Below, in pieces: positions 2,751-45,319 of a DNA stretch of 64,000 nucleotides. Position 1 is the stretch's first letter. Each line of letters opens with the position of its first letter. This stretch comes from Escherichia coli (GTDB taxonomy: Bacteria; Pseudomonadota; Gammaproteobacteria; Enterobacterales; Enterobacteriaceae), in NCBI RefSeq assembly GCF_003334785.1, contig NZ_QOWV01000018.1; one strand, written 5' to 3'. The position numbers and the translations under genes are program-made. Under the pieces are notes generated by a model that was not told where the DNA came from, made no database searches, and saw only the letters and a list, made by a program, of their open reading frames with translations.

Positions 2751-4081
2751 CACGCCAGTTTCAGATCCCGGGTCATGTTTTCCACGTTGTTTTCGTGGAT
2801 CACCACGTTGTCTTCGATACGAATGCCGCCGAACGGTTTCAGTGCTTCAATTTTCTGCCAGTTGAAGTGCTTGCTGAACTGCCCTTCACGCCACGGTGCC
2901 AGTAGCGATTCGATGAAGTAGATACCCGGTTCGATGGTTAACACCATGCCCGGCTGGAGAATACGGGTGCAGCGCAGGTACGGATATTTTGCCGGTGCCG
3001 CGAGGTGCGTACCGCTATCATCCTGCATAAAACCAGCGACGTCATGCACCTGCAGGCCCAGCGGATGGCCGATACCATGCGGCATAAACGGCCCGGTAAG
3101 ATCGTTTTCGACCATCGCTTCTTCACTCATATCGGTGATGATTTGATGTTTACGCAGCAGTTTGGCGATGCGCTGATGGAACTGGATGTGGTAATCCACA
3201 TAGCTGACGCCTGCTTTCATGGTGGCGATCAGCGCCAGTTGTTCATCATTAACGTCCTTCACCAGCTGCGCGTAGTCGTTGTCACTTTTTGCCGACCAGG
3301 TACGGGTCAGGTCAGCCGCATAGCCGTTATATTCTGCCCCGGCATCCAGCAGGAAGCTGCGCATCTCTTCCGGTGCCTGATGGTCCAGTTTGGTGTAATG
3401 CAGTACCGCAGCGTGTTCGTTAAGCGCCACAATGTTGCTGTAAGGTACGTCGGTATCACGATGACCGGTCGCGGTCAGATAGGCAATGTTGATATCGAAC
3501 TCGCTCATGCCAGAACGGAACGCTTCTTCTGCCGCGCGGTGACCGTTGACCGCCATTTTCTGCGCTTCACGCATACAGGCCAGTTCGTACTCAGTTTTGA
3601 AGGAGCGATAGTAATGCAGGTAGTCGATAACCCCTTTCGGGTTGATGTTGCTGGCCTCAATACCCAGTTGCAGCGCACGTTCCGGCACCGGACCGATATA
3701 ACCGATATTGCCGCGCGCAGCAGGCAGCAGGCTACCAATGCCATCGGCTTTCGGCAGCGCGATCACTTCCACATCTTCAGTCCAGAAAGAGGTCGGCAGC
3801 GGTTCGACGTTGTGCCAGTAATCAACCGGCAGATAGAACCACAGTTTCGGCTTGTTCACGCCATCCACCAGCAACCAGCAGTTTGGCACCTGAGTTACCG
3901 GCACCCACGCTTTGAATTGCGGGTTCACTTTAAACGGATAGGGATGATCGTCGAGAAAAACATTGAACAGCTCGCCGGAGTGAATAAGTAACGCATCCAG
4001 CTTGAAGCGCGCCAGCGCATCGCGAGTCCGTTCTTGTAAGGTAGCTATATGATTTTTATAGAGCGAGGCCAGTGATTCCAT
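2750..4081 (-). CDS. pepQ: Xaa-Pro dipeptidase (prolidase), M24 family (443 aa)
   Basis: ORF 2750..4081; [26 protein letters not shown]...; divergent from fadB as in E. coli. Confidence 0.93.
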
Positions 4082-41444: not shown

Positions 41445-43991
41445 TCACGAAAAATATTGCTGTAATAGCGGCGTATCGTGATCCTGATTGGCAGGCGGCA
41501 TGTTACCGATAGATTTTGTGCGGAACGGAATCACCTGTTCACGACCATCAACCTTCACAATCTGATAGAACTGCGGCAGGTTGAAGTTGATGAAGCTTGA
41601 GCCGTAGGTAAAACGGTCATGCGATGACGAGTAGAAGCGACTGACGTCACGTACCAGCTCCTCTTTGCTGCCTTCGCAGTGGTGATATACCTCAACCCGG
41701 TTGCTTTCGTCGAGAATGTAGATATTAAAGCCATTCTCGTCTTGCGTTTCTTCGAAAAAGAACTGGATGATCCCTTCGCTGGCAAAGCCGTCCACCACCG
41801 CCGGTAATTTGACGTGATTGGTTTCAACCTGCACTGACAGGCCGTGCAGTTTGTTATGCGAAATCGCGCCATAAAACTCGATGGCGTTTTCCAGTTTCTG
41901 TACCGATACATTCAGGCGTTCGAAGAACAACCCCCAGGTTTGACCAGAAACGCGCAGCGCCTTGAAACGCCCGGTTTCCTGGCGGGTGCTGGAAAGACGC
42001 AATTCAATACACTCAGAAACCAGTTGCTGCACGCGAGTACGAATTAAGCCGCGCAGATGCTGGCTATAACAGAAGACTTCCACGCTATCTGGCGGTGCGG
42101 CGTCCTGATGCATTTTGCCGAGAATAGTTTTCAGGGCTTCGATCATCGATTGCTCGCCGTTGAAGTGCAGCGTACGCACTTCGTTCCACGAGTTGCGGTA
42201 CAGCAGGTCAACGCTACCTACCAGGCAATTTTGATTCTCGCCAAAGCTGAAGACATCCAGCTTACGGAAATCGAAATGCACCACCTGATTGCGGAACGCC
42301 GCTGTCGGGTCATATTCCAGGTTAACGATAATCGCCAGATGGCGGATCTCACACGGGCTGTAGAGCGCCTTCGGTGTCGGTGCAGGTAAGCGCAGCGGGA
42401 AATGGTGCGACACGTCGGCGACCATCTCCTGCAACTTAGGCAAATCGACAATGCCGTTACCTTTAATATACAAACGGGTGCGCGAGGTCAGCAGGCCGTT
42501 AAACCATGCCCACGCCACCAGTTTATTCAGGTAACGGTTATATTCCAGCGGCTGATGGCTGATGATCGACTCAATATTTGGCGCGCGGTTATACAGATAC
42601 CAACCTGAACGGTTAGCCCGGCCCGGCGGCACATAAATAAAGGTCAGATTCGGTTCCGAGAGATCGGGTGAAATCTGCGGGTTTACCAGCGTCACTTTAC
42701 CTGGTAATGCTTCAAACGCGGCATACAGCTTACGCGTCAGCACGCCGATATCCTGCGGACTGGCGGAGACGCTAAGGTTATTGCGACGCGCAAAGCGGAT
42801 CAGATTACGGTAGCTCTGCATCATCGCGTCGAGCAACTCGTTGTGCGCCTCACGCACCTGATCAATCTTCCAGTTAGCGCGGTTATCGAGCATTGCCAGA
42901 CGAGCTTCGTCCCAACCCCACTCGCTCACTAACTGGCTCAACACTGCGCGACGCCAGCCTACGCAGGCGCGTTCACGGCTGAGCTTTTCGCACACTTTTA
43001 AATAGAAGCAGCGACGTACTAAATCCAGACGGGTAAAATCTTCAATCGCCGTCAGGTATTCAGTAACACGCTCCAGCATCATGCAGTATGGATCGAGACC
43101 AAACGATACAATCTCGCCGTCGTGCAAACGCTGTTTGATATCTTTCGCCAGCAGACGTGGGTTCGGGTATTCCCAGGAATAGGCTTCCAGCAGCAGTGTT
43201 TTCAGTACCGCTTTGTATGGGGAATCGATACTCTTGTAGAGCTGCCAAAGGCTGGCACCAAAGTACTCTTCAGCAGAAAGCGAGCTTAAGCCACCGAGAT
43301 CCAGCCATTCATTTGGCGTCAGCACGCCCTGCGCGTAAAGCGTCATCACATAGTCGTCGTAATGCTCTTCTTCGTCGCACGGCACCATATTCCACAGAAT
43401 ACGCTTACCGGCGAGACGCACGGCGGTACGATAAAATTCGTCAAGCAGCAGTATATGCTGGGTGGAGCCACAATCTTCGCCCCCCAGGCTGCCGCTTTCA
43501 TTATGACGGAAGCGGTTTTCATCAATCAGGAAGAAGCTGACTTCCACACCCAGCGAGGCGGCCCAGTTTTCCAGCAGGCTACATTTACGTTGTAGCAATT
43601 GGCGCTCTTCGCTATCGAGCCAGGATTGATGACAGACCCAGATATCCAGGTCAGAGGAACAACTTTGCCCTACGGACGAGGTGCTGCCCATGGTGTATAC
43701 ACCAGTAATTGGAAGCTCACCTTTCGGCGGATCCTGTACTGACATTCCACGATACAGTTCAAGCTCGTTCAGGTAGTGGCGTTGAGTTTCATCAGGCGTG
43801 TAAAGGCAAATGCCTTTGGGAACGTTACCATCAAGGTAACCCGGCATTAGCGGATGGTGATAGTGCAACAATGTCGGCAGTAGACTGTAGACCTGTTGGA
43901 ATGCAGGCCCCATAGCAGCAAGCGCGCGATCCACACGCAATTGATTTATGGCATCCAGTCTCTGTTTCAGAGTCTCAATATAGAGGTACAA
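41445..43991 (-). CDS. cyaA: Adenylate cyclase, class I (848 aa), TTG start
   Basis: ORF 41445..43991; [39 protein letters not shown]... The codon at 43989..43991 is caa on the plus strand, i.e. TTG on the minus strand. Confidence 0.94.
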
Positions 43992-44377
43992 GACGTATCG
44001 CCTGATTTGCTACCCGTCATGACTGTGATTCCGCCAACATCAACGGTAACACGCGGCATTCGGGATATTTCGTATGTCAAAGGTAACCGTTACCACTTTT
44101 CGCGCCTGGTTTTTTTAGTTTCACGACGAAAAAATGGTCTAAAACGTGATCAATTTAACACCTTGCTGATTGACCGTAAAGAAAGATGCGCTACATACAA
44201 GTGTAGCACCGTTTATTCTCTGTAAATTCCTTATTACAACGGCGTGAAACGCCTGTCAGGATCCACTGCCAGACCTCATTTTACGGTTTGCGCAGGCGTC
44301 TACGTTTCACCACAACACTGACATCACTCTGGCAAGGATGTTAGGATGGACCACGGATGATAATGACGGTAACAAGC

Positions 44378-45319
44378 ATGTTAGACAATGTTTTAAGAAT
44401 TGCCACACGCCAAAGCCCACTTGCACTCTGGCAGGCACACTATGTCAAAGACAAGTTGATGGCGAGCCATCCGGGCCTGGTCGTTGAACTGGTACCGATG
44501 GTGACGCGCGGCGATGTGATTCTTGATACGCCGCTGGCGAAAGTAGGCGGAAAAGGCTTATTTGTAAAAGAGCTGGAAGTCGCGCTCCTCGAAAATCGCG
44601 CCGATATCGCCGTACACTCAATGAAAGATGTGCCGGTTGAATTCCCGCAAGGTCTGGGACTGGTCACTATTTGTGAGCGTGAAGATCCTCGCGATGCCTT
44701 TGTGTCCAATAACTATGACAGTCTGGATGCGTTACCGGCAGGCAGTATCGTCGGGACGTCCAGTTTACGTCGCCAGTGCCAACTGGCTGAACGCCGTCCG
44801 GATCTGATTATCCGCTCCCTGCGCGGCAACGTCGGCACTCGCCTGAGCAAACTGGATAACGGCGAATACGATGCCATCATTCTTGCCGTAGCCGGACTAA
44901 AACGTTTAGGTCTGGAGTCACGTATTCGCGCCGCGTTGCCACCCGAGATTTCTCTTCCGGCGGTAGGACAAGGTGCGGTGGGTATTGAATGCCGCCTTGA
45001 TGATTCACGCACTCGCGAGCTGCTTGCCGCGCTGAATCACCACGAAACTGCACTGCGCGTTACCGCAGAACGCGCCATGAATACCCGTCTCGAAGGCGGA
45101 TGTCAGGTGCCAATTGGTAGCTACGCCGAGCTTATTGATGGCGAAATCTGGCTGCGTGCGCTGGTCGGCGCGCCGGACGGTTCGCAGATTATTCGCGGTG
45201 AACGCCGCGGTGCGCCGCAAGATGCCGAACAAATGGGGATTTCGCTGGCAGAAGAGCTACTGAATAACGGCGCGCGCGAGATCCTCGCTGAAGTCTATAA
45301 CGGAGACGCCCCGGCATGA
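44378..45319 (+). CDS. hemC: Porphobilinogen deaminase / hydroxymethylbilane synthase (313 aa)
   Basis: The ORF track opens at 44357; the recognised start is [34 protein letters not shown] at 44378. Confidence 0.93.

Follow-up and report, generated by a model that had tools for sequence, protein, structure and literature searches.

The TTG at positions 43991..43989 (minus strand) of the window, by which we mean the whole 64,000-nucleotide stretch of Escherichia coli DNA analyzed here, is almost certainly the authentic UUG initiation codon of cyaA, an inefficient start that selection maintains. Catabolite repression has cAMP as its signal, and CyaA, the enzyme that makes it, is under a tight limit of dosage; the cyaA TTG is a textbook case of gene output set by the choice of start codon. 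TTG starts are found in just a few percent of E. coli genes. The feature itself is already known, and has been since the 1980s, its conservation included. Confirming it here is of importance solely for annotation, in that the TTG is where cyaA of the window should be taken to start, for a product of 848 amino acids (aa); the comparison between species is a modest independent confirmation of purifying selection on the weak codon, which the literature had already stated. The features on which the argument turns are as follows.

43989..43991, minus strand: the TTG with which cyaA initiates (sequence, ORF list, and translated frame; the RefSeq CDS starts here too).
41445..43991, minus strand: cyaA coding sequence, class I adenylate cyclase (848 codons plus stop).
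43999..44003, minus strand: Shine-Dalgarno (SD)-like AGGCG with a 7-nt spacer to the TTG (sequence; conservation at −12..−8).
43992..44006, minus strand: conserved translation-initiation block at −15..−1, ATCAGGCGAnAcGTC (per-position conservation).
44010..44012, minus strand: in-frame TAG stop, 7 codons upstream of the TTG (frame translation).
43911..43913, minus strand: first in-frame ATG downstream, at codon 27, the sole conceivable downstream alternative (ORF).
43967..44020, minus strand: ATG-initiated 17-codon ORF, out of frame and overlapping the TTG, probably not functional (sequence).

The minus strand around the start reads caggcgatacgtc / aatcaggcgatacgtc and then TTG tac ctc tat att gag act ctg aaa cag, and a frame of 848 codons opens at this TTG (sequence and ORF list). 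The 848-aa product matched the NCBIfam equivalog NF006977 at 2048.3 bits (cutoff, 1761), with residues 1 to 848 aligned to profile positions 1 to 848 of 848, so that the family model, too, begins at the TTG-encoded residue. The catalytic-domain motif SDLDIWVCH is present from residue 113 (0-based index, 112). A 601-nt query across the start found a match in 5,426/5,426 complete E. coli genomes, mostly at ≥99% identity, and the match fell on cyaA (class I adenylate cyclase) and, divergent from it, hemC. The gene order was hemC-cyaA-cyaY, with hemC divergent upstream and cyaY downstream, in annotated E. coli genomes whose sequence equals or nearly equals that of the window. Three annotated genomes were inspected (L001, L002, and L123), one of them sharing just 94% identity with the 601-nt query and another carrying a single nucleotide polymorphism at −5, and in all three the RefSeq/PGAP cyaA CDS starts at the base matching window position 43991 (position 3410 of the L001 locus). 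The initial annotation had placed an 848-aa adenylate cyclase frame on the minus strand with a TTG as its first codon; gene identity, strand, length, coordinates, and N-terminus all proved exact (sequence, ORF list, NF006977, and RefSeq), and its reading of the TTG as the initiation codon is borne out by the coinciding RefSeq start, the SD-like block, and the conservation of the TTG described below. The locus thus shows what marks a genuine UUG gene, namely, the spacing of an SD-like element, the exclusion of alternative in-frame starts, and a start codon kept beyond synonymous drift.

An upstream in-frame start was ruled out for E. coli cyaA. The same frame 5′ of the TTG translates as SHDG*QIRRYV, and the six codons between the TAG (44012..44010) and the TTG (CAA ATC AGG CGA TAC GTC) include no ATG, GTG, or TTG; a start upstream in this frame is impossible because the stop lies 7 codons away with no start codon in between. 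It had been claimed that no in-frame ATG would give the recognized N-terminus, with the caveat that an upstream one might have been missed. One was looked for, and none lies between the TAG and the TTG, leaving the ATG at codon 27.

That the true start is this downstream ATG (43913..43911), and that the TTG is a mere mechanical opening of the frame, is a reading to which we give next to no credence. ORF callers do always stretch a frame to its first possible start, and the codon 27 ATG is kept in 75/76 Enterobacterales among the matches listed. Codons 2 to 26, however, have almost invariant amino acids with varying synonymous sites, and because they are conserved as protein while varying synonymously they must be translated, which rules out Met27 as the start and upholds the claim that there is no usable in-frame ATG. 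The conserved SD-like block also precedes the TTG rather than the codon 27 ATG, the NCBIfam model aligns from CyaA residue 1, and 2- to 6-fold shifts in the yield of the enzyme follow from mutation of the UUG (Reddy 1985, via PMC5499595). A cyaA entry was not found in the TRAINSPOTTER N-terminomics supplements. Table S3 of the INRI-seq study (PMC9825163), a table of alternative sites only, gives for cyaA an out_of_frame ATG 37 nt from the annotated start, detected in vitro, and the same +37 ATG has zero signal in that table’s Meydan 2019 in vivo column. At +38 of cyaA, the window contains an out-of-frame mini-ORF, ATG CCA TAA (43946 to 43954, minus strand).

Within E. coli, the start is practically fixed. 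A 41-nt query centered on the TTG was 100% identical in 5,422/5,426 complete genomes, and a more sensitive search found a one-base difference in the 41-mer in the other four; one of these, when inspected, had an A-to-G change at −5 and kept the TTG, which is therefore unchanged in at least 5,423/5,426 genomes. Versions of the 41-mer with ATG or GTG in place of the TTG had no match in the 5,426 complete genomes.

For comparison between species, a degenerate DNA pattern for SDLDIWVCH was searched in one genome per species (GTDB collection; a sample without Salmonella, Klebsiella, or Vibrio), which gave at least 120 loci. The upstream region was readable in 115 of the matches listed; for each locus, the frame of the motif was traced back to the previous stop and then aligned with the E. 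coli N-terminus. Among these matches, the start-aligned codon was TTG in 75/76 Enterobacterales-type loci (N-terminus xY[L/F]), from genera including Citrobacter, Enterobacter, Pantoea, Erwinia, Serratia, Yersinia, Dickeya, Pectobacterium, Photorhabdus, Xenorhabdus, Morganella, Edwardsiella, and Arsenophonus. It was also TTG in 15 other gammaproteobacterial loci among the matches listed, 10 of them from Aeromonas and the others from Tolumonas, Moritella, Agarivorans, Aliagarivorans, and Avibacterium. Thus, among the matches listed, 90/91 loci from other species sharing the CyaA N-terminus carry TTG, and none carries ATG or GTG.

The sole Enterobacterales exception among the matches listed was a metagenome-assembled genome (MAG; L061, Enterobacteriaceae bran_bin.7) in which TTT stands at the position of the TTG, the flanks are otherwise typical, and the frame offers no further start ahead of codon 20; either an error of assembly or a true loss of the start codon may account for it. 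The remaining 24 loci among the matches listed, which include Pseudomonas, Halopseudomonas, Cellvibrio, Alteromonadaceae, Chromatiales, and assorted MAGs, had no start codon at the aligned position, and most of them had an ATG about 15 codons further upstream, giving a longer N-terminus. In agreement with these longer N-termini, NCBIfam models of the subfamily of about 950 aa place E. coli residues 5 to 7 on profile positions 20 to 22.

Codon 1 behaves differently from the leucine codons within the gene. Across the 76 loci among the matches listed, it is never CTG, TTA, ATG, or GTG, while codons 8 and 18 each appear as six leucine synonyms, codon 12 as two, and codon 24 as five leucine codons plus replacements. 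The surrounding protein is nearly invariant at residues 2 to 19 (residue 3 alone varies, L or F) and mostly conserved at residues 20 to 26, with third positions varying throughout. Since the TTG is fixed in 75/76 loci among the matches listed and internal leucine codons use two to six synonyms, its conservation exceeds chance. On the comparison of sequences, this indicates that the TTG is under selection as a weak codon, showing no drift and no upgrade to AUG or GUG, because ATG and GTG replace it in none of the 5,426 E. coli genomes or the approximately 90 species among the matches listed. As a separate observation on codon usage, Arg codon 11 (43959 to 43961, minus strand) is the rare AGA in 63/76 Enterobacterales and AGG in 2, among the matches listed; CGN prevails at Arg codons 19 and 22, so that codon 11 is a conserved rare codon near a weak start.

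Conservation also marks the region directly upstream of the TTG. Among the matches listed, per-position conservation was approximately 40 to 55% at −30..−16 and rose to 84 to 100% at most of −15..−1, where the consensus is ATCAGGCGAnAcGTC; the AGGCG at −12..−8 was 84 to 100% conserved (73 Enterobacterales among the matches listed). Three-base periodicity is absent from the block, and periodic third-position variation of the coding type begins directly 3′ of the TTG. It follows from this lack of periodicity that, where the frame stays open upstream, −15..−1 is not evolving as coding sequence, and the conservation there is the footprint of a ribosome-binding site. The spacer itself is almost invariant in the 73 Enterobacterales among the matches listed (A at −5, 96%; G at −3, 93%; T at −2, 96%; C at −1, 96%). 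This conservation (43992 to 44006) is tighter than an SD alone would need, and neither RNA structure nor an Rfam family explains it: a single-sequence fold of −59..+50 did no better than shuffled sequences (z = −0.83), RNAalifold gave −1.57 kcal/mol for 25 diverse Enterobacterales, with no compensatory pairs, and an Rfam scan of window positions 43500 to 44500 (E ≤ 1) returned zero matches. An RNA structure sequestering the cyaA start was accordingly rejected on the shuffle and RNAalifold results.

Upstream of this block, the ATG of the 17-codon ORF lies at 44020..44018, 29 nt upstream of the TTG, and the ORF ends at 43967. If this ATG and the overlapping ORF were a functional upstream ORF gating cyaA, the weak TTG would be one part of that control. 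The ORF does exist in E. coli and spans the TTG, and a comparable out-of-frame ATG is found, as in E. coli, in two Citrobacter loci (L004 and L090). A 1-nt difference, however, brings the corresponding ATG into frame in E. albertii (L021) and two further Citrobacter loci (L081 and L092), where it lies 10 codons upstream of the TTG with the frame open, so that its frame flips in and out between close relatives within Escherichia and Citrobacter. The upstream ATG is, moreover, missing from most Enterobacterales among the matches listed, where no genus besides Escherichia and Citrobacter has it, conservation upstream of −16 is poor, no obvious SD was seen by inspection before the 44020 ATG, and evidence for translation of the 17-codon ORF was not found. 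A gating role is thus very improbable: the ORF is probably not functional, because it is not conserved, and it was rejected as a conserved regulator on this ground and for its flipping frame. Judged from the open frame, E. albertii and the two Citrobacter species with the in-frame ATG at −10 codons may make a longer CyaA.

A further out-of-frame ATG arises within the spacer of many Enterobacter-, Kosakonia-, Kluyvera-, and Pluralibacter-type species, which have GATATGTCTTG at −5 where E. coli has GATACGTCTTG (loci L006, L016, L028, L049, L058, L060, L062, L066, L067, L071, L102, and L105). This ATG stands 5 nt before the TTG and 2 nt past the SD-like AGGCG, and it opens an ORF of 9 codons (21 codons in L058 and L102).

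The preferred reading, an authentic and weak UUG start, corresponds to the following mechanism. The 30S subunit would be positioned by the SD-like AGGCG, 7 nt upstream of the UUG, which would be decoded by an fMet-tRNA mismatched to the first base of the codon and, owing to that mismatch, would initiate several-fold less efficiently than AUG. Inefficient initiation would hold CyaA synthesis low and would thereby limit the cellular capacity to make cAMP, and selection maintains the weak codon; the steps to cAMP and to fitness are the inferred ones.

Published work on the same codon agrees with this mechanism. PMC5499595, citing Reddy, Peterkofsky and McKenney 1985, gives adenylate cyclase for cyaA with UUG, GUG, and AUG in the ratio 1:2:6, and reports 1:2:3 for the same codons in a lacZ fusion. 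The E. coli K-12 cyaA UUG described there (Roy, Haziza and Danchin 1983; Reddy 1985, via PMC5499595) has the same gene, codon, and N-terminus as that in the window, with no difference in what is cited, and the cyaA UUG start is said to be common to many Enterobacterales and other Gammaproteobacteria (PMC5499595). PMC7177335 counts cya among those genes of the polyamine modulon whose inefficient start codon binds fMet-tRNA better under the action of polyamines (Yoshida et al. 2001), and describes the cya SD as normally positioned and the start codon as inefficient. A translational throttle is therefore the established reading, given the cited UUG mutagenesis and the polyamine literature. The initial annotation had proposed that the weak start throttles cAMP synthesis and that this fits what is known of E. 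coli cyaA; the literature agrees on the second point (PMC5499595), and the throttle is supported by the 1:2:6 ratio, as cited there, together with the fixed TTG, the step to less cAMP being the one that would follow from it.

The cyaA start resembles several known systems and differs from them in part. Like cyaA, spoT (UUG), infC (AUU), and tufA/fus and hupB (GUG) have non-AUG starts fixed across genera and are regulatory or dosage sensitive (PMC5499595). A non-AUG start need not act as a throttle, since tufA and hupB both reach high expression from GUG. The infC AUU, unlike the cyaA UUG, is autoregulated via discrimination by IF3. A loop of this kind is not known for cyaA. Feedback on cyaA is transcriptional, through repression by cAMP-CRP. 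The closest likeness is with the polyamine-modulon genes that have inefficient starts (cra, cya, frr, gshA, and spoT, as well as uvrY; PMC7177335), of which cya is a listed member: cya in the window combines an inefficient start with a normally placed SD (AGGCG, 7-nt spacer), as in that modulon, and its polyamine response is reported in the literature.

The throttle may, as published work suggests (PMC5499595 and PMC7177335), be condition dependent (polyamines, ppGpp/IF2) rather than fixed only. It is possible, if on balance doubtful, that the UUG is a conditional control point, kept as UUG and not GUG for a distinct response to polyamines, ppGpp/IF2, and cold; a similarly tentative suggestion within this reading is that nutritional stress favors CyaA synthesis relative to that from AUG mRNAs. 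PMC5499595 puts forward the idea that cold, nutritional state, and ppGpp affect UUG less than they do other non-AUG starts, reports that the competitiveness of a UUG mRNA went down by approximately 12% where that of GUG, AUA, and AUU mRNAs fell by 30 to 60%, and ties this robustness to the conserved UUG in cyaA and spoT. The start codon of cya, which places the gene in the polyamine modulon (PMC7177335), points the same way, as do the unusually conserved spacer at −7..−1 and the fact that in approximately 90 species among the matches listed and in 5,426 E. coli genomes UUG has never given way to GUG, a single mutation off. The competition data, however, come from a model mRNA in vitro and not from cyaA, and conservation of the UUG is equally expected if selection simply favors the lowest of three efficiencies. 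A conditional and a fixed throttle are compatible rather than exclusive. Going further, the UUG and the near-invariant 15-nt block might be a condition-sensing initiation site, fixed before the split of Enterobacterales, Aeromonadales, Pasteurellales, and some Alteromonadales, a suggestion we regard as unlikely; also unlikely, to the same degree, is that such a site is triggered by polyamines, ppGpp/IF2, or a trans-acting factor reading the spacer and is not merely a static start of low efficiency.

A promoter scan of the hemC-cyaA intergenic region gave two weak consensus matches. Approximately 155 nt upstream of the TTG lies a CRP-like site, TGTTAAATTGATCACG (44145 to 44160, minus strand), with 2 mismatches to TGTGA-N6-TCACA, which we take to be the place that the literature assigns to repression of the cya P2 promoter by cAMP-CRP. 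CRP-like matches at 2 mismatches were not above the chance count within the window, so the placing of a cyaA CRP site is owed to the literature alone. Also in this intergenic region, a palindrome, GTGCTACACTTGTATGTAGCGC, is followed by a T-rich run (44188 to 44209) and has a terminator-like score on both strands. The divergent hemC frame opens at an ATG at 44357 (plus strand; 320 aa), and its RefSeq start is 21 nt downstream at 44378 (313 aa; window positions 44357 to 44380).
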